Source: Eledone cirrhosa (Eukaryota). Taken from it: a stretch of 64,000 bases of DNA. The stretch is from assembly GCA_964016885.1 (NCBI GenBank), contig OZ024761.1, positions 12,090,001 to 12,154,000 of the forward strand, in the 5' to 3' direction. The notes beneath the pieces were generated by a model that was not told the origin of the DNA, ran no database searches, and saw nothing but the letters and a program-made list of their open reading frames with translations. The position numbers and the translations under genes are program-made. This document shows, in pieces, positions 3,245-63,791 of this stretch (the first letter of the stretch is position 1; each line of letters starts with the position of its first letter).

Positions 3245-5710
3245 TCATCATCATCATCATCACCGTTTTACGTCCGTTCTTCCACGCTAGCATGGGTTAG
3301 ACGGGTTGTCCTGTTGTGGGCAGTGTCTGGTCGGCTGACCATGCCTTGCTCATACAGGAACTGATCTGGCTTGATTTCTACAGCTGGATGCCCTTCCTAA
3401 CACCAACCTCATTTACAGTGAGTGCTGGGTGCTTTTTCGTGGCGCCTACACGTCCACTTTACAGTGTGGGCTGGGTGCTTTTTTGCCGTGGCACCTCCAC
3501 GACCACCTTGCGGTGGGGGGGGGGGGCATATTGTTTATATGCTTCAGCATGTACCCATGGGAGGTCGGGTACCCTGTATTACTGCGTGACGCCAGAAGTC
3601 ACGGTCGTGTGTCATTGACTTTGAGAGGTGTAGTTGGGTAAGGTCGGCTTTTATCACCTCATCCCAAGTCATCTTGGGTCTCCCCACTCCGCGGTTTCCA
3701 TCAACTTCTAGTGCTCTGCACCTTTTTATGCAGCTGTCATCCTTCATACGCATCACATGTCCATACCAGCGTAACCGCCTCTCCTGCACGCAGCATTTGA
3801 TTCCTCTTATGCTCAGTCTCTCTCTCAATTCATTTATGCTTTGTCGTTCACGTATATTACTGTTACACATCCATCGGAGCATGCAGGCTTCGTTTCTCTC
3901 TAATCTACGTAAGTCTTCCACCTTCAGCGCCCAGGTCTCACTACCATGCAACATCGCTGTTCGGATACACGCATCATACAGTCTGCCTTTCATTCTGAGG
4001 GAGAAGCCTTTTGCAGCTAGCAGTGGTAGTAGTTCCCTAAACTTCTTCCATCCCGTTCTTACCCTAGTTATTGTACTTTCTGAGCACCCACCTCCGTTGC
4101 TAATTCGGTCACCTAGGTAGCAGAAGCTGTCTACTGTTTCTACAGGGCCCTCCCAGAGATTGGTGGTACTTGTTTCCTGTGGCTGTTTGCTTGCTGTTTC
4201 AGCACAGCTGCTGCATGTGAATCCTACATTCTTAATTAAGCTTCCTGAGATCCCGCTACATCTCTTGTGTACCCATTGTTTGCATTTGGGGCAAAGAATG
4301 GAGTTCCTACCTACACCTTTCCTACATACTGAGCAAGGCCATTTCCCTGAGGGGATCTGGGTTCTGTTTTCTCGTCTACTTATAAGGACCTTAGTCTTTG
4401 TCATGTTGACTTTGAGGCCCTTTCTCTCTAGTCCCTGCTTCCAGGTTTGGAATTTATTCTCTAGTTCTACCATAGATTCAGCTATGAGTGCGAGGTCATC
4501 AGCATACAGGAGTTCCCATGGGCATCCGGTCTTAAACTCCTCCGTTATTGCCTGCAGGACTATGATGAACAGGAGAGGGCTAAGAACAGAGCCCTGGTGG
4601 ACCCCAACCTGTACGCTAAATTCCTCGCTATACTCATTGCCAATCCTAACTTTGCTGACTGCTCCCCTATACATGGCTTGTACCGCTTTCACAAGCCATT
4701 CATCTACTCCTAGTTTTCTAAGAGCCCACCAGATTACTGCACGTGGAACTCTGTCAAAGGCTTTCTCAAGGTCGACAAATGCCAAGTAGAGTGGCTTACT
4801 TTTAGCTAGGTACTTTTCCTGTAATTGCCTCACAAGGAAGAGCGCATCAGTGGTGCCTTTCCCTGGAACAAACCCAAATTGCATCTCGTCTATATTCACC
4901 CGGTCCCTAATCAGCTGTGCTATAACTCTTTCTGTTACTTTCATGACCTGGTCCATCAACTTTATACCTCTATAGTTTCCTCTATCTAGTGCATCGCCTT
5001 TACCTTTGTAGCAGTTGACAATGATGCTACTGCACCAATCTTTTGGTATGGCCCCCTCTAGTATTACCTGGTTAACGATACGTGTGGTTATAGTGTGACC
5101 TACAGACCCAGATGCCTTCAGCATCTCGGCAGCTATACCCGATGGACCGGTTGCCTTCCCTATCTTCATATCTCTGATTGCCTTACTTACTACGCTGCCG
5201 CTGACTTGTACTGCTGGTCCCTCTATAGGGTCTACGTGGGGTAGGGTCTCTTCTTCCCATGCATTCTCCTCATTTAGTAATCTATCATAATGACTCTTCC
5301 ATGCATCTTTCTTCTCAGCACTTGTGAGGGCAAGCTCACCTTTATCATTCCGGATACACTTCTCTCCAATGACATCACAACTATCTCTGACACACTGCCT
5401 CGCAATCTTGAATACCTCCTGTTTCTGGTCCTCACGTTGTAAAACATGCTTGAATTTTCTATCCTCTGCTTCCCTCCTAGCTAAGTATACTTGTCGCCTA
5501 GCTTCCCTCTTGGTCTCTATGTAATGTACCCTGCTCCCCCCGTTCTTCCATTCTTTCCATGCCTGTCTCTTGGCCTTGACTGCTTCATCTACCTTATTGT
5601 TCCACCACCAAGTCACTCTCCTCCTGCTTGAGGTCTTACTCCAGCCACAAACCTCATCCGTCGCCTCTAGTAAGTTATTTTTTAGGAACTCCCAGTTCTC
5701 TTCTACGTTA
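3245..5710 (-). mobile_element. 5'-truncated RTE-clade LINE; open RT ORF 3544-5616
   Basis: NYRGIKL, QFGF, FVDLEKAFDRV, GVHQGSVLSPLLF, YADD, Cys-rich CSVC/CPKC insert, RRLRWYGHV; (CAT)n tail. Confidence 0.95.
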
Positions 5711-5864
5711 AATGTCTCTATCTGTTCTTCTTATATATATATATATGTATGTATATATGTATGTATATATATATGTATATATATATGTATATATATATAT
5801 ATGTATATACACATGAATATATGTATATATATATGTACATATATATATACATATATATATACGA

Positions 5865-6794: not shown

Positions 6795-7418
<624 letters not shown>

Positions 7419-7513: not shown

Positions 7514-7628
7514 TGTATATATAGATATATATGTATTGTATATAGATATATATAGATATATATGTATTGTATATATATATATAATTCAAAATATTAACAA
7601 ATGAAGACATTCACATAATCAAAAGAGA

Positions 7629-7694
7629 TGTTTTATTATATATATTTCGAAGGTACTGTGCTGTTTTTTCAGTACGTCCTCGTCAGATAAAATA
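7629..7694 (-). ncRNA. Hammerhead ribozyme motif
   Basis: Reverse complement: UAUUUUAU-CUGACGA-GGACGUACUG..CAGUACCUUC-GAAA-UAUAUAUA-AUAAAACA. Confidence 0.75.
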
Positions 7695-7799
7695 CATGAA
7701 TTGATGTATGACATACCTCAACAGTCTTGATGGTTCAATTCCAGTCTTGGCAGTGATTTATTACATCAAATCTCAACATTTATATACCACAAATAATAA

Positions 7800-7991: not shown

Positions 7992-8925
7992 TCTATATAT
8001 ATAAAACTGTGGTTGTCTGTCTGTCTATCGATTTTTGGCACACATCTCCTCTTAGAATCTCTCACGGAATTGCACCGAAATTGCTATACTTGTACATTGA
8101 GCCCTAGCGAAGACATCGGAAAAAAAAATTTCAAATTGACCCACCCTATGTGACGAAATCGAATATAATGTATCGATTTTTGAGCGTAAGTTATCAGTTA
8201 TTTCCCTTTGTTCTGTTTACATTGAGCGTCTTACATAAAAAATTACGCTGGCTTTAACAGTTGTCGAGCCAGCAAAATATTGACCTGCAAAATTCATCAG
8301 TTCGAACACTAAACTTCCGTTTTGCTTCATTTCCATTTAAAAGCATTTTAAAACAATATTTTTACTTGAAAACAAGTCTATTTAAAGACTACGTAAAACA
8401 AGCAAATATTTCGTCGTTAGGCGTGCAGACAGACAGTCGTGCAGAGAGGTGATATACGCGTGCAGACAGACAGTCGTGCAGAGAGGTGATATAGGCGTGC
8501 AGACAGACAGTCGTGCAGAGAGGTGATATAGGCGTGCAGACAGACAGTCGTGCAGAGAGGTGATATAGGCGTGCAGACAGACAGTCGTGCAGAGAGGTGA
8601 TATAGGCGTGCAGACAGACATAACTGATAATTTGGTTACGCTAATGTTTTTCTCTGCGTTGCAGTGTTTACATTTTCGATCTTTGTTAATAAATAACCAG
8701 TGCAGTTTTTATCCCCAGCATCCTCTTTTGTTATAACATTCGGGTTATCGTTATGTTTTCTTAACTTCATAAGGCATATTGTTGGTTGAGGGAATATTAA
8801 TCAAAAACACCACATGCAAGTCTGCACAGTAGACACTACAGTTTTTAAGCCAAAAAAGAAACTTAACATTGTAACTTTAACACAGCTACTGAGCGACCCC
8901 GAGCAACGCCGGGCTTTACTGCTAG
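7992..8925 (+). mobile_element. Non-autonomous Helitron with internal ~32-bp tandem array (8419-8620)
   Basis: A|TC 5' end; 3' hairpin cccgagcaacgccggg, then CTAG|T. Confidence 0.8.
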
Positions 8926-14835: not shown

Positions 14836-14922
14836 CTATTAAAAACTGTTAAAATGTAAAAAAAAACTAAAAGCTGCCTTAATTTCTGAACAAATTAATA
14901 TTATTCCTTTCATCTTTTTCAG

Positions 14923-15346
14923 AGCAGCTTCTTGTATGCTTTTGAGAACAGTACTGAACCTGTTGCTCAGTTGATGTATACAAGTTCCAACCATGGATTG
15001 CCAGGATCTGTTTGTACATCCGAGGGTGGATATATTGTCTATACTACGACAGCAGCACCAGGAATGGTGGGCTCTGTTACAGGCTCGTCAGGGCTGTTGC
15101 CACAGCCTCACCTACAGGAAGTAAACACGGACCACATTGACAATCACTTGGTGCATTCAAGGGCAACTTTATTAAATGGACGTATGGCTCAAAACGAATT
15201 TGATAATCCAATGGACTTGTCGAATGGTAAAGTGGTCCAGGTTATCGATATGAAAAAGGAAGACACTCGGCAGTATGACCACAATCAACCAGCACCAAAT
15301 TATCGCCATAATGGTGTTACAGTTGGTATACCAGAATCTCAACATG
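14923..15346 (+). CDS. Su(H): Coding exon, N-terminal region of Su(H)/RBPJ (CSL); contains CtBP-binding motif PMDLS (15208-15222)
   Basis: Polypyrimidine acceptor ctttcatctttttcAG, open frame SSFLYAFENS...NPMDLSNGK...PESQH, donor G|GTAAGT (phase 1) matching the phase-1 acceptor at 40987. Gene identity is inferred from PxDLS plus GSLTPPDK motifs known in protostome Su(H). Confidence 0.8.
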
Positions 15347-15394
15347 GTAAGTCACCTCTTTACTGTCTTTCTTCATAGAATCTTGTTGGTAGGT

Positions 15395-21340: not shown

Positions 21341-21404
21341 TGCAATAAGTTGGAATTCCTTTTATTAAAATAATCTTCTATACACAATCATACACACCCG
21401 TGTA

Positions 21405-21465
<61 letters not shown>

Positions 21466-29028: not shown

Positions 29029-29064
29029 TATATATATATATATACATATATATAAATATTTAAT

Positions 29065-29452
29065 ATAGAAATGGGTTCTACAGGACTAGAACTGTTTCAT
29101 TCGGGAGAAGCCATTTCTATATTAAATATTTATACTCTGCTATGTATTGAGTACTTTACTTACTGTGGTTACCCCCTGATTGAACCTGGGATAAATACAT
29201 ATAAATATGTATATATATCTGTGTGTATATACGTGTGTGTGTGTGTGTTGTGGTTAAAAATGGTTTTCTGAAAAGAAACTGAAAGGTTCCCCACTCAGAT
29301 AAGGGACTCACAACATTAATAGAGAGGGTAGACATTTATTCCCTATAGAAATAACTTCTACATGACTAAAACTGTTTCATTTGTTTTGAAATCTCCAGGA
29401 CTTTCAAGATTATTTCAAATAAATGAAACAGTTCTTATCCTGTAGAAGTTAT
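29065..29452. mobile_element. Family H degenerate copies, including small palindrome 29351-29452
   Basis: Homologous to 39905-40040 (gaaacagttct..tcctgtagaa). Confidence 0.6.
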
Positions 29453-30537: not shown

Positions 30538-30612
30538 ATATAGTTATATTTGGGGAGAGGCATATTGTTATAATATTGCCAGAAATAATAACAATATGCC
30601 TCTCCCCAAATA

Positions 30613-31698: not shown

Positions 31699-31937
31699 GA
31701 TATCACAGAAAAAAGAGAATGAGTGTTGCGATGAAAGGAATTTATTGGACATATTACACTTGTTTCTCGGGCGACCAACTCGAGGCACGATCGATCTGGT
31801 GATCAAACCTGACTCTGAAATCATGTGGTCCTCGGATACGTCTCAATTCAACGAAGCAGATTTTCCTGGTCGCCCGAGAAACAATTGTAATATGTCCAAT
31901 AAATTCCTTTTGTCGCAACACTGATTCTCTTTTTTCT

Positions 31938-31944
<7 letters not shown>
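31699..31944. mobile_element. Family C foldback element with minus-strand extended-stem-II hammerhead (31748-31842)
   Basis: ~78-bp arms atatcacagaaaaaagagaat...gggcgacca; GACGUAU-CCGAGGA...GAAACAAGUGUA-AUAUGUC. Confidence 0.75.
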
Positions 31945-31988: not shown

Positions 31989-32272
31989 ATAATAATAAAA
32001 TTGAAGACTAAAATCCAAAGAGGGCTCGATAAGGAAAATATATATCAAATATATAAGAACCGTAGAGCAAATATTTATTAAAATAACAGATTAAAGTTTA
32101 AGCAAAGAATCGCTGCTTTCACCCTTAACGGGATCTTCTGAAACTAACAAAGTCAATCTGTAAACGCAGAAATTCCAGTTCTGCGTTTACAGATTGACTT
32201 TGTTAGTTTCAGAAGATCCCGTTAAGGGTGAAAGTAGCGATTCTTTGCTTAAACTTTAATCTGTTATTTTAA

Positions 32273-32273
<1 letters not shown>
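31985..32273. mobile_element. Family D ~195-bp palindrome (32078-32273) with variant hammerhead cores (CAGAAGA)
   Basis: Near-perfect inverted repeat; related pieces at 40091-40250 and 46700-47095. Confidence 0.75.
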
Positions 32274-32308
<35 letters not shown>

Positions 32309-32333: not shown

Positions 32334-33995
32334 CATCATCATCATCACCGTTTTACGCCATTTTTCCACACTAGCATGGGTTAGACGGGTTGTCCTGTTG
32401 TGGGCAGTGCCAGGTAGGCTGACCTTGTCTTGCTCATACGGAAACTGATTTTGGCTTGATTTCTACAGCTGTATGCCCTTCCTAAGACCAACCTCATTTA
32501 CAGTGAGTGCTGGGTGCTTTTTTTCCATGGTGCCTACACGTCCACTCTACAGTGTGGGCTGGGTGCTTTTTTGTCATGACACTCCAAGGACCACTTTGCA
32601 GTGGGAGGGGGTGGGAGCATATTGTCTATATGCTTCAGCTTCGGCTTGTACCCGTGGGAGGTCGGGTCTTCTGTATTATTGCGTAACGCCAGAGGTCTCA
32701 GTCCTGTGTCATTGCCTTTGAGAGGTGTAATTGGGTAAGGTCGGCTTTTATCACCTCATCCCAGGTCTTCTTGGGTCTCCCCACTCCAAGGCTTCCATCG
32801 ACTTTTAGTACTCTGCACCTTTTTATGCAGCTGTCATCCTTCATACGCATCACATGTCCATACCAACGCAACTGCCTCTCCTGCACACACCATTTGATTC
32901 CTCTTATGCTCAGTCTCTCTCTCAATTCATTTATGCTTTGCCGTTCACGTATATTACTATTACACATCCATCGGAGCATGCAGGCTTTATTTATTTCTAA
33001 TCTATGCAAGTCTTCCACAGACAGCGCCCAGGTCTCACTACCATGTAACATTGCTGTTCGGATACACGCATCATACAGTCTGCCTTTCATTTTGAGGAAA
33101 AAGCCTTTTGCAGCTAGCAGTGGCAGTAGCTCCCTGAACTTCTTCCATCCTGTTCTTACCCTAGTTATTGTACTTTCCGAACACCCACCTCCGCTGCTAA
33201 TTCGGTCACCCAGGTAGCAGAAGCTGTCTACTGTTTCTACAGAGCCCTCCCAGAGTTTGGTGGTACTTGCTTCCTGTGGCTGTTTGCTGCTTACTGTCCC
33301 GGTGCAGCTTACATTCTTAGCTAAGCTTCCTTAGATCCCATTACACCTCTTGTGTACCCATTGTTTGCATTTGGGGCAGAGGATGGAATTCCTACCTACA
33401 CCTTTCCTACATACTGAGCAAAGCCATTTCCCTGAGGGGATATTGGTTCTGTTTTCTCATCTACTTATGAGGACCTTAGTCTTTGTCAGGTTGACTTTGA
33501 AACCCTGTCTTTCTAGTCCATGCTTCCATGTTGGGAATTTCTTCTCTAGTTCCGCCATAGATTCAGCTATAAGTGTAAGATAATCCGCATACAGAAGTTA
33601 CATGGGCATCTGGTCTTAAACTCCTGTTATAGCCTGCAATATGATAATAAACAGGAGAGGGCTAAGAACAGAGCCCTGGTGGACACTGACCTGTATGCTA
33701 AATTCCTCGCTGTAGTCATTGTTAACCCTAACTTTCCTGACTGCTCCCCACAGGGGACTCTGTCGAAGGCTTTTTCCAGATCGACAAATTCCAAGTAGAG
33801 TGGCTTACTTTTAGCTAGGTACTTTTCCTGCAACTGCCTCATAAGGAAGAGAGCATCAGTGGTGCTTTTTCCTGGCACAAACCCAAACTGCATCTTATCT
33901 AGTTTTACCCGGTCCCTAATCAGCTGTGCTATAACTCTCTGTTACTTTCATAACCTGGTCCATAAGCTTTATACCTCTATAGTTTCCTCTATCTA
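32334..33995 (-). mobile_element. Decayed RTE LINE (same family as 3245-5710)
   Basis: Frameshifted RT: QFGFVPGK, DLEKAFDRV, RWYGHV; (CAT)n tail. Confidence 0.9.
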
Positions 33996-34230
33996 CATAA
34001 TTCTGCAAATAGCATCTGATAAAATCACCTTGTCTTGTATCATAATCAGAAGATAGAACTGCGCCATCGAAATATGTGATTTTGTGACCTGCTGCTGTTG
34101 TTTTAATGTATGTACCATCATCATCATCGTTTAACGTCCATCTTCCACGCTAGCATGGGTTGGACGGTTGGGGCGGGGGATCCATTTTTTATTGGAGGGG
34201 GGGGGGGGGGGCGTTTTTATATAACCATAT

Positions 34231-34274
<44 letters not shown>

Positions 34275-34294
34275 AACTAATTTAGAGAAAGGGT

Positions 34295-35515
34295 CAATTA
34301 GATGAGAAACAGTTTGGTTTTGTGCCTGGGAAAAGTACAACAGCTGCCTTCTTCTTAGTGAGATAACTACAACAGAGGTTCTTAGAGAAGAATAAGCCAC
34401 TATACTTAGCTTTTGTTGACCTAGAGAAGGCCTTCGATAGAGTACCCTGATCTGTCATCTGGTGGTCCCTAAGGAAACTAGGTGTAGAGGAATGGCTTGT
34501 GAGGACAGTGCAAGCTATGTACAGGGGTGCTGTCAGTAAAGTGAGAGTAGGAATGGAGTTTAGTGAGGAATTCCAGATACAAGTAGGTGTACATCAGGGT
34601 TTGGTCCCCAGCCTGCTCTTGTTCATTATAGTCTGCCAAGCCATAACAGAGGAGTTTAAGACTGGCTGTCCATGGGAACTTCTCTAGGCTGACGATCTGG
34701 TACTTATAGCAGAATCAGTTGAGGAGCTAGAGAATAAATTCTGGCTATGGAAACAGCAGTTGGAATCAAGAGGACTGAGAGTGAACCTAGCTAAGACTAA
34801 GGTGTTGATAAGTGGGAAAGGGGATAAAACACTGATTCCATCATGGAAATGGCCATGTTTGATATGTAGGAAAGGAATTGGTATAAATTCTATAAATTGT
34901 ACACAATGCAGATCCTGGGTACACCATAGATGTAGTGGGATAACAGGCAAACTAACAGGTAGGGAAAACTACATATGCAGTAGATGTACAGGGAAAGTTG
35001 ACAGTAGAAGTCGCAGTGATAGACACATTTTTCAAATGCAGGTGGGTTCTATAGAAGTAGTTGATAGCTTCCGGTACCTAGGTGATCAGATTAAGGGAGG
35101 AGGGTGCTCTGAGGCCATAGTATCTAGAATAAGGACGGGTTAGAAGAAGTTTAGGGAGCTGTATCCTCTGTTGACAAAGAAGGGTTTCTCCCTACGAACG
35201 GAAGGCCGGTTATATGATGCCTGCGTGAGATGCGCGCTGCTGCATGGTAGTGAGACATGCGCAGCAACTGCAGAGGATATGCGATGGCTGGAGAGAAATG
35301 AAGCAAGCATGCTCCGATGAATGTGCAATGTCAATGTGCGTGAACGACCAAACATAGATGAGTTGAGAGAGAAGTGTATAAGAGGGATAAACTGTAGTGT
35401 GCAGGGGAGAAGACTGCGATGGTATGGACATGTGATGCGCATGGAGGATGACCACTGGGTAAAGAAGTGACAAGAAATCCCAGTAGAAGGAAGACCACAA
35501 AAAACCTGGGCGGAC
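34295..35515 (+). mobile_element. Decayed RTE LINE, related subfamily, opposite orientation
   Basis: LAFVDLEKAFDRV, KTGCPWELL*ADD, RWYGHVMRM. Confidence 0.9.
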
Positions 35516-38595: not shown

Positions 38596-38880
38596 TCAAT
38601 GATATTAAATAAATGGAAACTATATTTATAAAACCATATTTATTTTATATCTTTTTATATATTTATAAAACAAACTTTGTATTTTATCTGATGAAAGCAC
38701 ACCAATGTTGTCTTGGTTGCCCTTGAAATATATATAATAAAATAAATATGGTTTTATAAATATAGTTTCCATTTATTTAATATCATTGAATATTTACTCC
38801 AGTAAACTGTTGAGTGCTCTAAATCAGTTATAAACATTTATATTTGTTGGACTTCCAACAAATTAAATACCCCTTCTACT
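38596..38880. mobile_element. Family A foldback element with + hammerhead (38680-38744)
   Basis: UAUUUUAU-CUGAUGA...GAAA-UAUAUAUA-AUAAAAUA. Confidence 0.8.
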
Positions 38881-39682: not shown

Positions 39683-39908
39683 CTAGCAACTTCGAAGCAA
39701 ATCTTCCAGCTGTTCTGAAGAAGCAGAGAGTGCTCAACTGGCATACCGCCTATGGTTACATCTAAGCAACCTTACAATAAATATATATATATATATATTT
39801 TAATGAGTTCCCTTTTCTATCAACCAATGACCTACACCCATCCCACTCCCTACCCTCTCCTACCACCTGAAGAGACCTATAAATACCATATTTATTTTTT
39901 GATACCCA

Positions 39909-39957
39909 GATTCCTGATGATTTCTAAAGAATGAAACAGTTCTAGTCCTGTAGAATC
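39909..39957 (+). ncRNA. Hammerhead ribozyme with a true stem III (family H)
   Basis: GAUUC-CUGAUGA-UUUC(UAAA)GAAU-GAAA-CAG(UUCUAGUC)CUG-UA^GAAUC. Confidence 0.8.
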
Positions 39958-40040
39958 TCATCTATATTAAAACTGTTATATTCTGCAATGTATTGAGTAC
40001 CTTACTTACTGTGGTTACCTCCGATTCAACCCGGAATAAC

Positions 40041-40097
<57 letters not shown>

Positions 40098-40258
40098 TGA
40101 CAGATTAAAGTTTAAGCAGCGATTCTTTGCTTAAACTTTAATCTGTTATTTTAATAAATATTTGCTCTACGGTTCTTATATATTTGATATAAATATTTAT
40201 CCTTATCGAGCCCTCTTTGGATTTTAGTCTTCACATTTATTATTATTACTTTATATAC

Positions 40259-40412
<154 letters not shown>

Positions 40413-40414
40413 AT

Positions 40415-40720
40415 ACTTGGGGAGGGTCATATTTGTGTAATATTGCCAGAATTAATAACAGAACACACTCACTGTTTGGTTGGTTTTCGCTTCTCGCTGT
40501 CTTTTATATCTGAGATCTAACTTACTCGGTCCTCAATGTTGCCATTGACTGACCGACGGTCAAAAATAATACAGATACAATATAGACACAAACACATATA
40601 GTTTACACAAACACATACAGTTTACATAATTTACATAAATCTTTCGTTGCACATCTGCAACATCGTCAGTGGTGTTATATTCTTTGTTCCTCCTGTTGTG
40701 TTGTATGTCTACGCCATTTT
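40415..40720 (-). mobile_element. Family B-like element with hammerhead core (40633-40674)
   Basis: Terminus ttggggagggtcatat..ttgcca; reverse complement CUGACGA-U-GUUGCA(GAUG)UGCAAC-GAAA; stem I weak. Confidence 0.6.
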
Positions 40721-41289: not shown

Positions 41290-42250
41290 TCCCTGACTCC
41301 AAGGTAGACAACACCAGGCAATGTCTCACAGCTGCTCTCCATGAATTTCTGTCCATAGTATCGACATTGGCCAAGTTCCATTTATACAAATCACTCTTCA
41401 CGCACTCCAACCACGTCTTCCTTGGTCAGCCACGATCTCTAGTGACAGGGACTGCCAAGTGAGGGATGGAGTTGATCTATGGCGTGGTTCGCTGTACATG
41501 TCCTTACCAACGGAGACATTGTGTGTGAAGGACAGCAGTGATCTCATCTACACCCAGCTTCTGGTGGAACACAGTTCTTCCTTGGTCAGCCACGATCTCT
41601 AGTGACAGGGACTGCCAAGTGAGTGATGGAGTTGATGTATGGCGTGGTTCGCTGTACATGTCCTTACCAACAGAAACATTGTGTGTGAAGGACAGCAGTG
41701 ATCTCATCTACACCCAGCTTCTGGTGGAACACAGTTCTTCCTTGGTCAGCCACGATCTCTAGTGACAGGGACTGCCAAGTGAGTGATGGAGTTGATGTAT
41801 GGCGTGGTTCGCTGTACATGTCCTTACCAACGGAGACATTGTGTGTGAAGGAGAGCAGTGATCTCATCTACACCCAGCTTCTGGTGGAACACAGTTCTTC
41901 CTTGGTCAGCCACGATCACTAGTGTCAGGGACTGCCAAGTGAGTGATGGAGTTGATGTATGGCGTGGTTCGCTGTACATGTCCTTACCAACAGAAACATT
42001 GTGTGTGAAGGACAGCAGTGATCTCATCTACACCCAGCTTCTGGTGGAACACAGTTCTTCCTTGGTCAGCCACGATCACTAGTGTCAGGGACTGCCAAGT
42101 GAGTGATGGAGTTGATGTATGGCGTGGTTCGCTGTACATGTCCTTACCAACAGAAACATTGTGTGTGAAGGACAGCAGTGATCTCATCTACACCCAGCTT
42201 CTAGTGGAGCACGGTCGAAGGGGTCTCATCTTTCAATTTGGCGCCACAGA
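41290..42250 (-). repeat. 160-bp tandem array (~5 units) derived from an RTE LINE C-terminal fragment
   Basis: Period 160 (repeated ORFs at 41538/41698/41858/42018); minus frame RW*GHVQRT...RG*PRKTWLECVKSD. Confidence 0.85.
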
Positions 42251-45137: not shown

Positions 45138-45610
45138 TGATTAAGTAAAAAGTGTACATCCACATATGTATACTGAAATACTAGTATGCATATAAATACA
45201 CACACGTATTTGTTTTTATCGTTTCCGTTGAACCGGTACGTACTCACGCTCTATGCAAATTAGTCTGCCCACTACTAATTTTCATAGAAAAAGCATATAA
45301 CGATATGTGCTTTTACGATTCTCTAGAGGGGCCGGAGGATGGGTATATATTGCTGATGAGATGTAATAACATCGAAACTAGTCCAATATTCCTGTCTGGC
45401 TCTCTGGAGAATAGAGGAAAGGTGTTTCCTTGAAAACCAGTATGACTCTAAAAACCGGTTTGTCTGTTTGGTTACATACAGACTAGCTGGACACTCACAG
45501 TAAAGTGTCCAGTGAAAAACTCGGTACATGTACATATGTATACGTGTGTGTATTTATATGCATACTAGTATTTCAGTATACATATGTGGATGTACACTTT
45601 TAACTTAATT
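45138..45610. mobile_element. Family E element: ~70-bp inverted ends around a canonical hammerhead
   Basis: attaagtaaaaagtgtacatccacatatgtatactgaaatactagtatgc and its reverse complement. Confidence 0.8.
45347..45389 (+). ncRNA. Canonical minimal type I hammerhead ribozyme
   Basis: AUAUUG-CUGAUGA-GAUGU(AAUA)ACAUC-GAAACUAGUC^CAAUAU; perfect stems I and II, palindromic ACUAGU. Confidence 0.9.
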
Positions 45611-47969: not shown

Positions 47970-50900
47970 ACTGGAAAAAAACATTCGAGCTATCACCCAG
48001 CACCACCCTCCACTATCACCCCACTGCACAAACTCCCATTGCTGCCATTAACAAACAAACAAATTAACAACACACCAAAACAATTAAAACCATCCACTCT
48101 CGCCTCTACATTTTTGCTTAACGCCCAAGGCATCAGCCCTTCCACCAATACTCAAAAATGGAAGATCAAATTCCTGGAGGACTGGATTGATGTCCATCCA
48201 AACCACATCCCTTTCTTCGTCCTCACTGAAACCCATCTCAGTAACCTCCACTTGGAAGCCGAGGTGAAAGTGAAAAATTTCAAAGCCATCCGTGCTGATC
48301 GCGCTGGCAGAAGAAAGGGCGGAACTGCCATTTATGTCCATAATTCTTTCTCAACAGAGGCTATGAACATATTCACTAATGGATACTGTGAGGCAGTCAC
48401 TGTATTCAGTCAAACCAACAACCTATTAGTAGTTGGGCTCTATAGGCCACCCCAAACGCCTGTACCATGCTTCAAGGAATGCCTCAACAGCATAAAGTGT
48501 TTCATCCAAGAGTGTCACCCTGACAACATCTTAATGATGGGGGACTTCAACCTCCCCGGAGTTGACTGGTCCACAAACACCCTGCCACCAGGTTCTTCTG
48601 CCTCAACCTCTGACAGGGAAGCTGTGGAATCGCTTCTTGACTTCATGGATGATTTCTTCCTATCCCAACTAGTGCTCGAACCAACGAGGTGCCACAAAAA
48701 CGTCCTAGACTTAATTTTCAGCAATCACACTGACAATATCCACAATATTGCAGTGGAGAAAACTCTACTCTCTGATCATGACATGGTTCTCTGTGATCTG
48801 AGATTCCACCGTCCAATATACAAACCCAATGTCATTTCTCCTGTCCATCCGTTTGACGCTATGGATTTCCACAATGCAAACTGGGAAGCGATCAGTCATG
48901 ATCTTGCACATGTCGACTGGTCCTTCACGCACACTCATACACCCACTAACATCAAAAAGTCCTGGCAGACATTTGTGGACACTGTTACAAACATATGTGC
49001 TAAACACACCCCATTAAGAACTATAAACAAATCTAAGAGCAGAATCCCTAGAAATAGAAAAACACTCATCAGAAAAATTAAGAGAACGAACAAAAAAATC
49101 AACAAGCTGAAATACTGTCAGCAGCAACACATCAACTTGACTGCCATTTCATCACTAGAGATTAAAAAACATAACCTCCAAAACAACATAATGTCCCTCA
49201 TCAACAATCAGAGAAGAGCTGAAGAGGCCTGGGCCATTGAGAAGATCAAACTCAATCCCAAAGTGTTCTTTTCATTTGCAAAAAAACACAAAATCACTGG
49301 CTCTACTGTTGGCCCTCTAATTGATGAAAATGGCACTCTTCAAGACAATGCTAAAACCATGGGTGAGATACTGCAGAAACAATACTGCTCTGTTTTCAGC
49401 AATCCTGATATGGCCGATCTGGGCTGTATCGGCGATGTTACTCCCCATTACACCTTATCGGACATAACGTTTGGCGCCCCTGATGTCTTGGCGGCAATAA
49501 AGGAAATCAAGCATAATTCAGCAGTAGGTCCCGATAGGTTCCCTGCTTGTGTCTTGAAGGCGTGTCAACACCAACTTGCTTCTCCTCTTGCCAATCTGTG
49601 GCGGAACTCACTGGATGCTGGATATGTGCCAGAAAACCTTCTATCCCAGTCTGTTGTCCCAGTTTTCAAAAAGGGAAACAAATCCCTTGCCGTGAATTAC
49701 CGTCCAATCTCACTCACCTCTCATATCATTAAGGTATTTGAGCGAGTGGTGAGATCGCGAATGACCCACTTCCTTGAGAGTAACAATATGCTGAACTCCA
49801 ACCAGCATGGATTCCGTAATGGAAGGGATTGCCTGACGCAACTACTGCATCACTTTGATGACATTTTGAGAGCCTTGGGAGAGGGTTCCAACACTGATGT
49901 TATCTACCTTGATTTCAGCAAGGCCTTTGACAGGGTTGATCATAACATTCTACTGAGAAAGCTGTCCAATATTGGTGTCACTGGAAAGCTGCTGCAGTGG
50001 ATCAAGAGCTTCCTGTCAAACAGAACCCAACATGTTGTAGTTGAGGGAGTCAAATCAAGCCCAGCCAAAGTCAGTAGTGGAGTCCCACAAGGCACTGTGT
50101 TGGGCCCACTTCTCTTCATCATCTATATTAATGACATCACTGACATCATCAAACACAGCAACATTAAAATTTTCGCTGATGATTCCAAGCTCCAAAAGGT
50201 CATCAATGGCGTGGATGACCGGATAAGCCTTCAGTCAGACCTACTGGCTGTTACCCAATGGGCAGAAAAGAACAACATGCTACTGAACGAAGACAAATTC
50301 GAACTGATCCACTTTGGAAAAGAGGATGCTCTGAAACTCCCGTACTCCCTTCCCTCCGGGGAAACTCTCGTGGCATCTAACAACATCAGAGACTTGGGAG
50401 TAACCGTGGACAGCAACATAAGCTGGACCACGCATATAAGCAGCAAAGTTGACATGGCCCGCAGAATGTGTTCCTGGATCCTCAGAACCTTCCAGTCGAG
50501 AGATTCCCGCACCATTATCCTTCTCTTCTCTACTTTCGCCCGACCACACCTTGAATACTGTTGTCCACTGTGGTCTCCCCACACGAAACAAAGTATCATG
50601 AAACTTGAAGCTCCTCAAAGGGCAATCACGAAAAAGATAGATGGCATGTCAGACCTTGACTACTGGGGTCGATTGGAAAACCTGAAACTTTACTCACTCC
50701 AACGTCGCCGTGAGCGTTATATTATCTGCATGATGTGGAAAATGTTCCATCATCACTGCCCAAATGATGTTGGCATCGCCTTCAAGATACACCCAAGGCT
50801 TGGGCCCCGTGCTATCCGTCCCATTCAAAAATCTAAATCGCAACTCATAACAACAATACGGCACAATTATTTCACCTCAATCGGCCCTGCTCTCTTCAAC

Positions 50901-51146
50901 ATCACACCAGGACACGTCAAAACAGAAACTGACCACACAAAATTCAAGAAGTCTTTGGACAAATTCCTCCAAGTAATCCCGGACAAACCACCCACACCCG
51001 GATATGTCTCCGCAAACAGTAATTCTCTTCTCGAATGGGCCATGGTGCCCAAATCCTGAATTGAAAGACTTCGCCAGGTGGTGCTATTAAGTTAGACATG
51101 GCCTGGGCCAATACTGGCCAAAACATTTCAAAGTTATTCAAAGTTA
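47970..51146 (+). mobile_element. CR1/Jockey-group LINE with uninterrupted APE+RT ORF (~47970-51059), 5'-truncated, in (TA)n
   Basis: LNAQG, LTETH, YRPP, GDFN, LDL, SDH; [40 protein letters not shown]; 3' (ttcaaagtta)2. Confidence 0.95.
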
Positions 51147-51375: not shown

Positions 51376-51437
<62 letters not shown>

Positions 51438-51440
<3 letters not shown>

Positions 51441-51849
51441 AAAGTTCTATTTAAATTGTTGGGATACAACAAGCAAATATTATTATAACTGATATAAAGC
51501 ACTCGACAAATATTTGGAGTAGATATACAATATTAATAAATGGAAACTATATTTATAAAACCATATATATTTCAAGGATACCAAGTTAAATCATGGTATG
51601 CCTTCATCAGACAAAATACAATATATAACAGTTTTACAAATAGATATTGACGTACCCTTTCAAAAAGGTGACCGTTGTTTTTGGAGAAACAATGGTCACC
51701 TTTTTGAAAGGGTACGTCAATATCTATTTGTAAAACTGTTATATATTGTATTTTGTCTGATGAAGGCATACCATGATTTAACTTGGTATCCTTGAAATAT
51801 ATATAATGAAATAAATATGGTTTTATAAATATAGTTTCCATTTATTAAT

Positions 51850-51894
<45 letters not shown>

Positions 51895-52055
51895 ATGATA
51901 TTAATAAATGGAAACTATATTTATGAAACCATATTTATTCTATTATATATATTTCAAGGGTACCAAAACTTTGGTACGCTCTCACCTGTCGACTGCTTCG
52001 AATCTGTTATAAATATATTTGTGGAATTACCAACAAATTAAATATCTCTCTGCTT
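51438..52055. mobile_element. Family A near-perfect palindrome (51524-51856) with two opposed hammerheads, plus an adjacent truncated copy
   Basis: Nearly the same ORF reads on both strands; + hammerhead 51749-51813. Confidence 0.85.
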
Positions 52056-52275
52056 ATAAATATATATATGAAGTATTTCCGTCGGAAAGGTACAGGAAAA
52101 CAGAGTGCTCTATGTAGGCTACAGAGCTTAATAGTTATGTAATAAACAACATAAGATAATTATTTCATTTACCAGTGGTTTCTTTAAGGCAGATGTTGTA
52201 TCTGTCTTCAGTTGTCAGAATGAATAAATAACACAAGTGTTTTTATTTAAAAAAAAATATATATAGATAGGTAGA

Positions 52276-52362
<87 letters not shown>

Positions 52363-52635
52363 ATGCCTAAAGGAGAATACATAAGAGGGAAATATATTGA
52401 TCGTTATCAGGTATTTTGTTTTAAATTTTTTATGAAATTTAATAAAATACTCAACGAATTATGTAGTCTTACTTTCAGTACAGTTTGTCTCTAGTTCTAA
52501 GTTTTGATATATCTTAATACACACTTATGTGTGTATGTATATATTTCAATCACTTTCTTATAATTCAATCACTTTCTTATAATCACTTTCTTATAATGAT
52601 ATATATATATTTTAATAAATATATATATATATATA

Positions 52636-53067
52636 ATATAAGATCAAAAGATGGTTAAAGGAGTTCCATATATTTTATTATGCGCATTTCAAAAACAAAC
52701 ATCATCAAGCAATAATATTTGTGTTTTCATCAGATAAAACAGGAGAACATGATATGAAGGTTAAAAAACACTTGTGGATAGTGCAGTTTTAAATCAACAT
52801 ATGTTGATTTATATGTTGATTTAAAACTGCACTATCCACAAGTGTTTTTTAGCCTTCATATCATGTTCTCCTGTTTTATCTGATGAAAACACAAATATTA
52901 TTGCTTGATGATGTTTGTTTTTGAAATGCGCATAATAAAATATATGGAACTCCTTTAACCATCTTTTGATCTTATATTATGCATACTCCAGTCCCACAAA
53001 CTGTAGAGTTTTTCTTATCCGATATCTGCATTGCTTTATTGTACTACAATAAAACTCACCTCCTACA
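52636..53067. mobile_element. Family F ~340-bp palindrome with two opposed hammerheads, plus tail
   Basis: Arms meet near 52805. Confidence 0.85.
52872..52942 (+). ncRNA. Hammerhead ribozyme (family F)
   Basis: UGUUUUAU-CUGAUGA-15-bp stem II-GAA[AUGCGCAU]A^AUAAAAUA. Confidence 0.85.
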
Positions 53068-53262
53068 TATATATATATATATATATTTATATGCATATAT
53101 ATGTATAAATATATATTTATATGTGTATATATATATATATATACATACATATATATACACATACATATATAACATATATATACAATATATTAACAAATGG
53201 AAACTATATTTATAAAACCATATTTATTTTATTATACATATTTCAAGGGCCGCCAAGGCACG

Positions 53263-53345
<83 letters not shown>

Positions 53346-53357
53346 TATATATATATG

Positions 53358-53780
53358 TATTAATAAGAGGAATTCCAACTTTGTCTGATTTACTCGTTTT
53401 ATTTACGATCCTTTAAAATTTATAATGGTATTATAATGAAATAGTATGATAGAATATTAAATGTTAAGTGTTAATTGAACAAGTACTTTCATGCTTTCGC
53501 AATCTTCAGGTTCATAATGTGTGGTGACAGTCAAGTTTGCAATTTTCAGTTGAAAATTGCAAACTTGACTGTCACCACACATTATGAACCTGAAGATTGC
53601 GAAAGCATGAAAGTACTTGTTCAATTAACACTTAACATTTAATATTCTATCATACTATTTCATTATAATACCATTATAAATTTTAAAGGATCGTAAATAA
53701 AACGAGTAAATCAGACAAAGTTGGAATTCCTCTTATTAATATAATCTTCTATACACAATCATACACACCCGTGTATATTT
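53358..53780. mobile_element. Family G ~385-bp palindrome with two opposed hammerheads, plus tail
   Basis: Centre ttttcagttgaaaa near 53550; the tail also occurs at 21348-21410. Confidence 0.85.
53585..53623 (+). ncRNA. Minimal hammerhead ribozyme (family G)
   Basis: UGAAC-CUGAAGA-UUGC(GAAA)GCAU-GAA[AGUACU]U^GUUCA. Confidence 0.75.
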
Positions 53781-53834
53781 ATCTATCTCTATATATATAT
53801 GTATATATGTATGTATATATTCTGACAATGTGTG

Positions 53835-53866
<32 letters not shown>

Positions 53867-53873
53867 CTGACAA

Positions 53874-53926
<53 letters not shown>

Positions 53927-54389
53927 CTTGGGGAGGGTCATATTGTAATAATATTGCCAGAAATAATAACAGAACACACTCACGGTTTGTTTGGTTTTCA
54001 CTTCTGTATCTTTTATATCTCCTTAGTTAATTTATTTGGCAATTAATGTTTATCATTGATTGACCAACGGTTAAAACTACAGATATAAACATAGATATAT
54101 ATAGTCTATCAAAGTTGTCCCTCGGTATTTGCAAGGGTTGCATTCCTAGAGTACCTATGAAGAGGGAAAAACCACAAATATTGGACATGGTCCATAAAAA
54201 TGCCTATAAATGTCAAAACATAACATAAAATATAGGCTGGCAAATACGGTTTATTGTTATTAATTTAGCGTGAAAAAATATATATTGCCATGAAAAAAGC
54301 CATAAGAAAATTGTAAAAGATATTTACAATTCCACGAATTATGCGGTGGTTTCCACAAACAATTATTCGTTAGGGGTCTAAGGAAAATT

Positions 54390-54835: not shown

Positions 54836-55517
54836 CGGGTACAAGCCGAAGCTGAAGCATATAGACAATATGCCCCCACCCCCTCCCACTGCGAAGTGGA
54901 CGTGGAGGTGCCACGGCAAAAAAAAGCACCCAGCCCCCACTGTAAAGTGGACGTGGAGGTGCCACGGCAAAAAAAAGCACCCAGCCCCCACTGTAAAGTG
55001 GACGTGGAGGTGCCACGGCAAAAAAAAAGCACCCAGCCCCCACTGTAAAGTGGACGTGGAGGTGCCACGGCAAAAAAAAAGCACCCAGCCCCCACTGTAA
55101 AGTGGACGTGGAGGTGCCACGACAAAAAAAAAGCACCCAGCCCCCACTGTAAAGTGGACGTGGAGGTGCCACGGCAAAAATAAAGCACCCAGCCCCCACT
55201 GTAAAGTGGACGTGGAGGTGCCACGGCAAAAAAAAAGCACCCAGCCCCCACTGTAAAGTGGACGTGGAGGTGCCACGGCAAAAAAAAAGCACCCAGCCCC
55301 CACTGTAAAGTGGACGTGTAGACAAAAAAAAGCACCCAGTACTCACTGTAAATGAGGTTGGTGTTAGGAAGGGCATCCAGCTGTAGAAATGAAGCCAGAA
55401 TCAGTTCCCGTATGAGCAAGACAAGGTCAGCCGACCGGACACTGCCCACAACAGGACAACCCGTCTAACCCATGCTAGCGTGGAAGAATGGACGTAAAAC
55501 GATGCTGATGATGACGA
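54836..55517 (+). mobile_element. RTE 3' UTR with ~52-bp unit amplified about 8 times
   Basis: cccactgtaaagtggacgtggaggtgccacggc(a)ngcacccagcc repeats; (GAT)n tail. Confidence 0.85.
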
Positions 55518-57360: not shown

Positions 57361-58026
57361 TATATATATATACACAAATACATATACATACATATATATA
57401 TATATATACACGCACATATTCACGCATATATATATACACACACACATATATATATATACACATATACACGTATAAATATATACATACATATATATATATA
57501 CACATACACACATACATATATATATATACACATATACACGTATAAATATATACATACATATATATATATACACATACACAAACACATATATATACATACA
57601 CATATACACGTATAAATATATATATACATACACATATACACATATATATACATATATATCAAGGGAGTAAGAAAGGTTAAAAAAAAAAACAAGCATAACA
57701 TTGAGAAAAAGAAAATCTACATACATACATATATGTATATATAATACATACACATATACACGTATAAATATATATATATACATACATATATGTATATATA
57801 ATACATACACATATACACGTATAAATATATATATATACATACATATATGTATATATAATACATACACATATACACGTATAAATATATATATATATACATA
57901 CATATATGTATATATAATACATACACATATACACGTATAAATATATATATATACATACATATATGTATATATAATACATACACATATACACACCTGTATT
58001 TATTGTATACTCCATCGGAAGGAAAG

Positions 58027-58412
58027 ATGACTTGTACTTACCCCTCAGATTTCTCGGGAAGGATTGGCTCTTCCTACCCGGAGTCGAACCTAACCACACT
58101 ACACCCACATCACCCTCAGCCCCACCACGCGCAAAGCCCTATCCCCACTGGTACTGTTTTATCCCAAGTACCACCGCCGCCACCACCACCACCACCACCG
58201 CTGCCACCAGCACAACTGCCACCACCACCACCACCAATGCAAGCCTGTGGGCCGCCTGCAATGTCAACACCACCTAGCTATACCACCATGGGGCCTTACC
58301 AATCCTACCTTGGAGATCTATACTGTTCACCTGACCTGGGGTACTATGACTCCTACTACCATAAAGATGCTGAGCTCAGCAGTTGTCGATATGGATTTTC
58401 TAATTTTCCAAG
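58027..58412 (+). CDS. Probable alternative exon of the same gene (Pro/Tyr-rich); alternative first exon (ATG 58027) or cassette exon (acceptor 58047-58048)
   Basis: Unique open frame MTCTYPSDFSGRIG...polyP...RYGFSNFP ending at donor CCAAG|GTATTT in phase 2, the same phase as exon 40987-41209. Confidence 0.55.
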
Positions 58413-58475
58413 GTATTTTTTTAATAGAAATTCTTTACTTTTGTTGGGTTTTTTTAAAATCAATTTCCACACAAG

Positions 58476-58772
58476 TTAACCCCTTCCATATGTTTCTTAA
58501 CCCCTTCCATATGTTTCTTAACCCTTTCGTTATGTTTCTTAACCCCTTCCATGTTTCTTAACCCTTTCCATATGTTTCTTAACCCCTTCCATATGTTTCT
58601 TAACCCTTTCCATGTTTCTTAACCCCTTCCATATGTTTCTTAACCCCTTCCATATGTTTCATAACCCTTTCCATGTTTCTTAACCCCTTCCATATGTTTC
58701 TTAACCCCTTCCATATGTTTCATAACCCTTTCCATGTTTCTTAACCCCTTCCATATGTTTCTTAACCCTTTC
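58476..58772. repeat. 19-21-bp minisatellite TTAACCCCTTCCATATGTTTC
   Basis: About 14 units. Confidence 0.9.
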
Positions 58773-61932: not shown

Positions 61933-61979
<47 letters not shown>

Positions 61980-61982
<3 letters not shown>

Positions 61983-62870
61983 GGTGCGGACGATATTTGT
62001 TCGCAAGATTACTGTCTAGGAAAAGATACCACAGTAGTTTTACTTTTTAAGATATATTTATCAAACTTGGGTCAGTTTGTCTTCATGACTTGTTCTTTCG
62101 ATCTCACTCAATAAACCCGCCATTGGCTTTGATGACAGCCTCAAGGCGGCCTTGGAACCGGCTACAGGCCTTCGTCACTGTCCCCCGACTTAGGCCCCTA
62201 AAGGCACTTGTGGTCCTGGCCTTCAGATCGTCTTTCGTATTGCAGCTAGATCTGTTGGTGTCTCGTTCCACTGCGCCCCACACAAAGAAGTTGAGGGGGT
62301 TGCAGTCAGGCGAGCTGAGAGGCCAGATGTCAGGTGAAGTGTGGTCGACGAAGTTTTCTGACAGCCAGGCTTGGGTCTTTCGGCTGGTATGGCAGGGCGC
62401 TGAGTCTTGCTGCCACACGTACGGCCTACCTGCAGCTACCTGGTCGATCCAGGGCTTTACTACCTCGCTCAGAATGCGGATGTAGCCATCAGTGTTCAGC
62501 TTGAGGCCCTCAGGGAAGAAGTGAGGTGGCATGATGTCACCTTGACTGCTGACGACACCTAAGACCAATGTTGTCGCTGGAAACTGTGTCTGCATGACTC
62601 TGGGCACGTCTTTGGATGAGACAGCGAGCCACCTGTTATTCTGGGAGTTGATCTTCTGGTCTTTATTTGTCCTCCAGGTGCGGATTCCAAGAAGAACTCC
62701 GTGTCTCTTCCACAAATTTGGAGGTTCAAACTTATTCATAATCAATTATTCTGAAAATAAATAATGGAAATATAGTCACTGTTTTTATGAAGACAAGAGT
62801 GACAATGGAAGTAAAAAAAACTTTGCATAAAATTAGCAGTTGAAAATTGCGAACAAATATCGTCCACACC

Positions 62871-62873
<3 letters not shown>
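61980..62873 (-). mobile_element. Internally deleted Tc1/mariner (maT/DD37D-like) transposon
   Basis: 27-bp TIRs cagggtgyggacgatatttgttcgcaa in (TA)n; QQDSAPCH, WPLSSPDCNPLN, GGFIE. Confidence 0.9.
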
Positions 62874-62920
<47 letters not shown>

Positions 62921-63618
62921 AAGGTATATATTGAGTTAGAAACTCAAAATAGTCTCTTACAATTAAATAGCTCAAGGAAAGAGATTTTTCCAGGCTGTGT
63001 AATATAATTGAATATAAAAGAGAGATAAACACAGATATATACATATATGTTCAAATTGTAAGGGACCAGATTCGCTAGGGTGAAAAAAATACTAACTATG
63101 AACAATAGGGTTTGCCAGATAAAATAATAAATCAAGAAAAGAAATACAGTTGCCCGAATTTGGGGCAACTACCAGACAGCCAGACAGCTTTTGGCAATAC
63201 TGTTTCGCAATTCTAGTGAAGGGAATTATCAATTCTTTTACTCATCAGTGGTTGTAAAATTAGTAAACCCTTCACTTCTAAGTATCTCAGAAGACTGAAT
63301 AGTGTACGCATATAAAATGACGCACCTGGCATCAGAACCTAGCTTGTCTCATAAACGTACGCTACTAAAAGTAGCAGCCAAGTTTACTCGTCATTTAAAT
63401 TAGTTCTACAAATTCAAGAAGCCAAATATATCAAAGGTATATATTGAGTTATGATTTGAACACATATATGTGTTTATCTGCGCTTATCTCTCTTTTATAT
63501 TCAATTATATATATATATATATATATTTCAAACCCACTCACTGTTTCAAAAATATTCTTACTTGACATTACAGTCGCTAAGTTTATAGCTTCTAATTTGA
63601 ATGGAAAAAGACGGGTGA

Positions 63619-63686
63619 TGTGTTGGTGTAAATGGTAGCACAGTGGTCCGGATAACCAAAGATGTGGGTTCGACTCCCATGTACGT
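63619..63686 (+). other. tRNA-like Pol III head (SINE or pseudo-tRNA)
   Basis: A-box tggtgtaaatgg, B-box ggttcgactcc; cloverleaf imperfect. Confidence 0.5.
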
Positions 63687-63791
63687 CAATACACATCTTT
63701 TTCCATTTCTCCGAGGGTTCTTAACCCCACTATCAGGCTAAATAATTTCTTTAATTTCTTTAGTCAAAATACGGCGATAGCTAACATTTAT

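Follow-up and report, generated by a model that had tools for sequence, protein, structure and literature searches.

Three head-to-head palindromes with hammerhead ribozyme motifs in an Eledone cirrhosa contig: very probably Penelope-like remnants, and probably products of twin priming at insertion

Three near-perfect palindromes with hammerhead ribozyme motifs (P1, P2 and P3) lie close together in contig OZ024761.1 of Eledone cirrhosa, in the 64-kb stretch that was analysed here as a whole (the window, to which all positions refer). The palindromes are very probably 5'-truncated pLTR remnants of Penelope-like elements (PLEs), and with a probability of roughly 0.6 they were made at insertion by twin priming. 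The observations on which this explanation is based are the inversion, a single tail in each insertion, outer ends that are fixed at two points, a fixed inner end, the near-identity of the arms and the filler at the junction. P1, P2 and P3 are separate insertions and not one unit.

P1 consists of two inverted arms at 51544-51680/51687-51823 that agree at 95%, and under gapped alignment it reaches about 51527-51853. The arms of P2 (52628-52802/52811-52985) agree at 98% and those of P3 at 100%, and the arm lengths of all three are 160-191 nt (Table 1). When centre letters and arm ends are left out, what separates the two arms of P1 is a single substitution plus a deletion of 14 nt; the arms of P2 show one substitution and those of P3 none. 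The three near-perfect palindromes that the sequence-only reading had described are therefore present where it had placed them, at 51524..53741, although the elements themselves reach further by their one-sided tails, P1 starting from 51438. Contrary to that description they are not consecutive, since two truncated family-A pieces sit among them, and the region is thus a pile of at least five insertions. Each palindrome is flanked by (TA)n tracts, and the ribozymes point away from the palindrome centre, which means that the arms are joined head to head. The inner end of the left arm of P2 is the fixed 5' point of family F, and the 8-nt filler next to it completes a 12-nt templated duplication.

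Table 1. Positions of the arms, tails, junction filler and neighbouring insertions in the palindrome region of the window.
Feature	Position	Strand	Remarks
P1 tail (family A)	51438..51526	-	89 nt, into (TA)n; six further family-A insertions have alignable tails
P1 left arm, pLTR-like	51527..51686	-	core 51610; hammerhead broken by 14-nt deletion including the cut site
P1 right arm	51688..51853	+	runs straight into (TA)n
Minimal type-I hammerhead of family A (P1 right arm)	51749..51813	+	palindromic loop 3; predicted cut after 51805
Separate family-A insertion	51893..52058		arm of ~80 nt on the minus strand joined to a tail-only piece on the plus strand
P2 left arm (family F)	52633..52802	-	intact hammerhead 52671-52741; outer end (TA)n
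P2 junction filler	52803..52810		within 12-nt direct duplication 52799-52823
P2 right arm	52811..52980	+	intact hammerhead 52872-52942; predicted cut after 52934
P2 tail	52981..53066	+	86 nt; multi-copy part of the family in 4 of 4 read runs
Separate truncated family-A arm	53183..53262	-	partner arm not found
P3 left arm (family G)	53358..53548	-	hammerhead 53476-53514; outer end in (TA)n
P3 right arm	53551..53741	+	hammerhead 53585-53623; predicted cut after 53618
P3 tail	53742..53780	+	about 39-48 nt

Families A and F have the same layout and reach a local score of 88, against a best score of 65 in 300 shuffles; the two are distant relatives. The clustering of P1-P3 is mild: three of the five symmetric palindromes of the window fall within 1.87 kb, for which a simulation gave P of about 0.02-0.04 with a span that was chosen afterwards. 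This is in line with a nested use of (TA)n targets. The flanks at 52362-52577 and 53925-54090 are repeat families too, with relatives in the reads that carry 10-14 differences and further copies at 40414-40580 and 30547-30593.

A descriptor of the type-I hammerhead matched five of the six arms (51757+, 52880+, 52733-, 53590+ and 53509-) and gave 14 matches across the whole window, and 0 matches in each of 30 local shuffles. In the five matched hammerheads helix III has only 1-2 bp with a palindromic loop, which is the dimer-dependent form, and co-folding predicts that dimers via loop 3 are favoured by 5-12 kcal/mol over two monomers. The G10.1-C11.1 pair closing helix II is missing and is replaced by A-U in families A and F and by U.U in family G. 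The sixth hammerhead, on the minus strand of P1 (core 51610), keeps its core but no longer has a cut site or the 3' strand of stem I, so that P1 yields an intact ribozyme from one strand only. A sense and an antisense ribozyme, which had been proposed for each palindrome, were thus found in P2 and P3 and not in P1.

The helices of the hammerhead were also compared in eight related family-A copies, where 96% of 152 cells are paired and 3 of 19 pairs show changes on both sides, a number whose support is inflated by the relatedness of the copies. The conserved pairing can be taken as modest evidence, given this relatedness, and would point to selection on the mobile element and not on this locus. 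No hammerhead reached the Rfam gathering score in the whole window, and hammerheads were absent from the 81 Rfam matches at E<=10 in 51400-54000. These 81 matches, all below the gathering score and mostly generic miRNA hairpins, were discarded.

The hallmarks of PLEs that are present here are the minimal type-I hammerhead, the head-to-head inversion, the tail at one end and the (TA)n target. As no ORF for RT/GIY-YIG was found, the membership rests on these non-coding features. GIY-YIG (Pfam) gave 0 matches in 130 of the 157 filtered ORFs of the window; the scan left out 27 ORFs that are antisense to LINE ORFs or are tandem-repeat or low-complexity frames. The RT matches of the window belong to separate ORFs of apparent LINE type away from the arms of P1-P3, and target-site duplications are unreadable inside (TA)n. 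In the sections available of Craig 2021 (PMC8557442), PLEs are described as carrying at their 5' end a copy that is inverted and 5'-truncated, with a tail of 30-40 bp at one end, hammerheads in the pLTR and (TA)n targets. Head-to-head repeats with palindromic junctions are described in the available text of Arkhipova 2013 (PMC3846280), and that of Schostak 2008 (PMC2377424) reports an internal promoter in Penelope. The palindromes themselves are a known structure and ordinary PLE debris, and the families are new. Two other assignments were considered and rejected: a non-LTR retrozyme, since the units here are inverted pairs and not tandem arrays, and a MITE or foldback DNA transposon, since the ends are asymmetric (one has a tail) and the junctions differ from copy to copy.

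In each of the three palindromes one arm adjoins (TA)n directly, and the other arm reaches (TA)n via a tail. The tail of family A is conserved in seven copies, and that of family G has a second copy at 21371-21415, which is identical at 44 of 45 positions and likewise ends in (TA)n. Exactly one tail was found in 14 of 14 inverted insertions, which belong to seven families. If each end picked its site independently at 50:50 this outcome would have a probability of 6e-5. Judged by the ends at (TA)n, copies with both tails or with no tail were absent among the 14 insertions examined. Two family-A copies, A39k (left arm not found) and A53.2k (right arm not found), were dropped before this count, as were three inverted pairs taken to be of SINE type (21866/22737), LINE type (33535/34524) and mariner type (61935/62847); family I was outside the count and was read afterwards. 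By the measure of the script the tails are 48-101 nt long up to the first (TA)5. The shorter arm bears the tail in the family-A copies at 25k, 28k and 52k, the longer arm in the copies at 1.5k, 38k and 40k, and five insertions have equal arms. A fifteenth inverted insertion at 29052-29197 also has one tail, again on the shorter arm. The 64 kb of the window thus contain 15 or more inverted insertions (five of them symmetric), a density of about one per 4 kb. Long arms of family A end across about 37 alignment columns and not at a single base.

More PLE-like insertions of other families were seen at 1886-2300, 7590-7700, 29052-29197, 31700-31943, 32075-32275, 39830-39990, 40092-40157 and 45140-45609, most of which are inverted and have one tail. 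The hammerhead descriptor matched other families at 7686-, 32140-/32210+, 39914+ and 45353+, where the pair 32140-/32210+ is a core variant with A replacing U4. A further hammerhead was read by eye at 2108+, and none was seen in the 31.7k family.

The two arms of an element are far closer to each other than copies are, as the sequence-only reading had claimed. Within family-A elements the arms differ at 1/152 (P1), 13/186, 1/67, 4/72 and 0/48 positions, against a median divergence between elements of 19% (range 7-24%, 34 pairs). The inversion was therefore made at or near insertion. In the 7k copy, 8 columns distinguish the two arms. All of them lie inside a single stretch of 55 columns, and for 6 of them other copies show both states, whereas outside the mixed patch the two arms share private variants. 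In the 1.5k copy the arms differ at 2 sites that are polymorphic in the family. Such differences suggest that two templates were used or that conversion took place later. The 7k copy (6926-7292) is a family-A palindrome and a mosaic of two variant types, with a short filler, itself duplicated, at a palindromic junction of 4 nt.

Near-identical arms would also result if older inverted pairs had been homogenised later by intrachromosomal gene conversion, and the mosaic in the 7k copy is an instance of patchwise exchange or of mixed templates. We consider this explanation very improbable, as short arms that are separated by a spacer are also near-identical (1/67, 0/48), P1 retains its 14-nt deletion in one arm, and it leaves the single tail and the fixed inner end unexplained.

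Parts of the stretch are contained in 20 public sequencing runs, and at least half of its words in three runs, which are one sample and maybe the source of the assembly. Four runs were aligned to 52362-53066 at 85% likeness. Family F is high-copy in all four, one of which is under a different organism label, and in all four other F copies end at 52980 into (TA)n. Among the 27 joints listed (there were 52 further), 23 have one side at 52796-52802 or at its mirror 52811-52812, with 15 of 15 in one table and 8 of 12 in another, where a crude null of uniform truncation gives 0.078 per joint. The partner side of the listed joints scatters and lies inside the tail in 10 of the 27. This listing comes mainly from run X1 (24 of 27), perhaps the assembly's own sample, and is blind to arms that run far past the fixed point. 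P2 is the case in which both arms reach the fixed point of family F.

Cleavage by the ribozyme as the step that sets the cDNA ends is not supported, as 0 of the 27 listed F joints lie at 52935 or its mirror 52678. One family-A arm (38597-38648) has its inner end at the predicted hammerhead cut, a single case. Many F records run past 52803 into a shared sequence that is absent from the stretch (185 reads of X21 and 8 contigs of X1), which means that F is in addition the terminal part of a longer element. In this longer form a frame seems, by hand reading, to be kept open to a stop at 52822-52824. In a pattern scan of metagenomes 2 loci matched F over only 24-32 nt and were judged unrelated.

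The reads bear as well on a fold-back artefact of sequencing or assembly, which we regard as scarcely credible. Such an artefact would fit the perfect match of the P3 arms (100%) and the lack of a flank-to-arm bridge at the P2 locus among the reads and contigs listed, with depth 0 at 52578-52625, where repeats were skipped; the exact locus of P2 thus rests on the assembly. However, the outer flanks are not mirrored, the arms differ, and the tails are one-sided and conserved. In addition, symmetric F centres without 2, 4 or 7 of the filler letters occur in X1, X5 and X21. The palindromes had been expected to show up in raw reads, and variants of the F centre are indeed present in raw reads and also in contigs under two organism labels. 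By the logic of the sequence P1-P3 can be considered real and not an artefact.

For the origin of the palindromes by twin priming the following course is proposed. The GIY-YIG nuclease of a PLE would break a (TA)n target, and one broken end would prime reverse transcription at an internal start (site 1, the arm end), the other at a downstream start (site 2, the tail end). Both cDNAs would then extend toward the fixed 5' end of the template, probably the transcription start of the pLTR, and their ends would be joined together by end-joining, with 0-4 nt of microhomology or a short templated filler. Joining of the polymerase-theta type would be of this kind. When both cDNAs reach the end of the template, a near-perfect palindrome of about one pLTR length would be formed, as in P1-P3, and when one stops early an asymmetric inversion. 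The arms would be near-identical because they are usually copied from the same or a sister RNA, and the ribozyme together with its antisense would be a by-product of the insertion. A wider claim is that twin priming is obligate for PLEs, with a dimeric enzyme that uses both ends of the (TA)n break, one for each fixed RNA start site, and with subsequent joining of the cDNAs; we see the chances for and against it as even. According to the available part of Frangieh 2024 (PMC11167929), a PLE protein was seen in vitro to cut the two strands of its target and to extend each of them. Its synthesis begins at two sites, one at either limit of the tail, a dimer is predicted, and cleavage by the ribozyme is not required. 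In a search of titles and abstract beginnings that covered few subscription papers (the PLE reviews of 2005-2006 not among them), no proposal of twin priming for PLEs was found.

The main alternative to be weighed is a snap-back or self-priming origin, in which cDNA or antisense RNA of a PLE folds at its end and serves as its own template, a cut of the copy at site 1 leaves one tail, and asymmetric copies are produced later by deletion from the unstable centre. A similar proposal is in print, as self-priming on an antisense template was put forward by Arkhipova 2013 (PMC3846280, from the sections available). The arms of P1-P3 are nearly identical, 5 of the 14 insertions of the window are symmetric to within about 12 nt, and small self-complementary sequences are present at several centres, all of which snap-back would explain. 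The obligate single tail is likewise expected if a nuclease resolves the copy at site 1. A fixed end next to a variable one could come from a perfect palindrome that loses sequence at its centre on one side only, and mixed arms could be a product of later gene conversion. However, a shorter arm that bears the tail, as in 4 cases of the window and 10 of the 27 listed F joints, is not primable from a cDNA without the tail. Each of these arms needs a secondary deletion that spares the other arm to within a few bases, and arms of different variant types (7k and 1.5k) demand a further conversion event. We therefore rate this origin as possible but unlikely. Simple snap-back as the general route, which the sequence-only reading had suggested, is not supported, since frequently it is the shorter arm that carries the tail, and two elements of family A combine arms of differing variant types.

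In the folding predictions 54 of 64 ribozyme bases of P1, 73 of 73 of P2 and 44 of 44 of P3 are paired to the other arm, so that the whole palindrome is predicted to sequester the hammerhead, in agreement with the earlier suggestion that foldback may mask it. A read-through RNA would, according to these models, fold back and mask the ribozyme, most simply as a by-product. Such silencing needs no selection, because minimal hammerheads are described in the accessible text of PMC4209133 as having no activity as monomers anyway. It is nevertheless conceivable that the palindromes are hairpin RNA genes selected by the host, as dsRNA substrates of ADAR or Dicer or as ribozyme switches. Their predicted folds are very stable (-242, -278 and -308 kcal/mol), and small RNAs of PLEs are known in rotifers (PMC3846280, available sections). 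This explanation has very little to recommend it, as the structure recurs in at least seven repeat families across the window and is fully explained by insertion, nothing specific to the locus was seen, and the conserved pairing of the family-A hammerheads would point to selection on the element. The arm substitutions (n=2) are too few for an editing signature. Among the changes in the DNA run X21, A>G (20) and T>C (18) are about equally frequent, which was assigned to family variation, and a signature of editing was rejected there.

Several other features were seen in the window. At 47970-51059 (+) an uninterrupted frame of 1029 aa with AP-endonuclease and RT domains marks a young LINE, which lies immediately to the left of P1 and has a short repeat and (TA)n at its end. 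An LINE RT followed by a PHD-finger match is found at 3544-5730 (-), with fragments at 32698-35143. An element at 61935-62918, which we take to be mariner-like, has terminal inverted repeats set in (TA)n. Its transposase-like frame (62104-62745 (-)) gave no Pfam match. The only Rfam match at gathering score is tRNA-like (63617-63688 (+), 42 bits) and possibly the head of a SINE. Young minisatellites lie at 54885-55318, 41416-42212 and 8418-8620, with periods of 52, 160 and 37 nt and 97-98% matches. Two frames at 14899-15378 (+) and 57859-58479 (+) resemble host exons, are non-repetitive and Pro/Ser/Tyr-rich and have no Pfam match; if they are exons, the palindromes may be intronic and transcribed.

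The mechanism of the inverted and tailed structure of PLEs is called undefined by Craig 2021, and its origin is stated as unresolved in the sections available of PMC8557442 and PMC3846280. A specific and testable model of PLE integration results from the one-tail rule together with the fixed inner end. If it is true, obligate twin priming would account at once for the tail, for the inversion and for pLTR palindromes that lack an ORF, and this genome would be a natural library for twin priming and for very many ready-made RNA hairpins. The density of hairpins makes the palindromes a plausible bulk source of dsRNA. Standard annotation will miss such palindromes or mislabel them as MITEs or miRNA hairpins.

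For LINE-1, twin priming was reportedly described by Ostertag and Kazazian in 2001 as priming of cDNA by both target ends, with joining at microhomology that leads to an inversion. In LINE-1 the second site is said to be variable and the arms barely to overlap, whereas here the sites are fixed and the full overlap gives a palindrome.

Like the EN+ PLEs (Penelope/Poseidon, Neptune and Nematis) in the available text of PMC8557442 and PMC3846280, the insertions have head-to-head arms of pLTR length with palindromic junctions, a tail at one end, (TA)n targets and a hammerhead inside the repeat. The pLTR length of 181-218 in A. vaga compares with arms of 160-191 nt here, and the published tails of 30-40 nt with 39-101 nt. 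In contrast to these elements, no ORF was found between or beside the arms. Non-LTR retrozymes (bioRxiv 10.64898/2026.07.22.740005, as far as available) are alike in being non-coding, in their type-I hammerhead and in their derivation from PLE pLTRs, but form head-to-tail tandem arrays and not head-to-head pairs.

The minimal hammerheads of PLEs as defined by Cervera and de la Pena 2014 (PMC4209133, sections available) share with the motifs found here the core CUGANGA...GAAA, a helix III of 1-2 bp with a palindromic loop and a helix I of 5-8 bp. They differ in the conserved G10.1-C11.1, which is absent here, where the ribozymes are predicted from sequence. The same text reports pairs of hammerheads on opposite strands 100-700 bp apart and interprets them as truncated PLEs. 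Such pairs were thus already published in 2014, and what is new here is the mechanistic lead. PAc, the Poseidon element of Anolis (PMC11167929), is alike in its two fixed 3' ends that bound the tail, in its AT-rich target and in that the F joints listed here give no hint of cDNA ends set by the ribozyme cut. In the available part of that paper the two sites are not tied to an inverted product, whereas here they are apparently an obligate pair, with one site used at each end.
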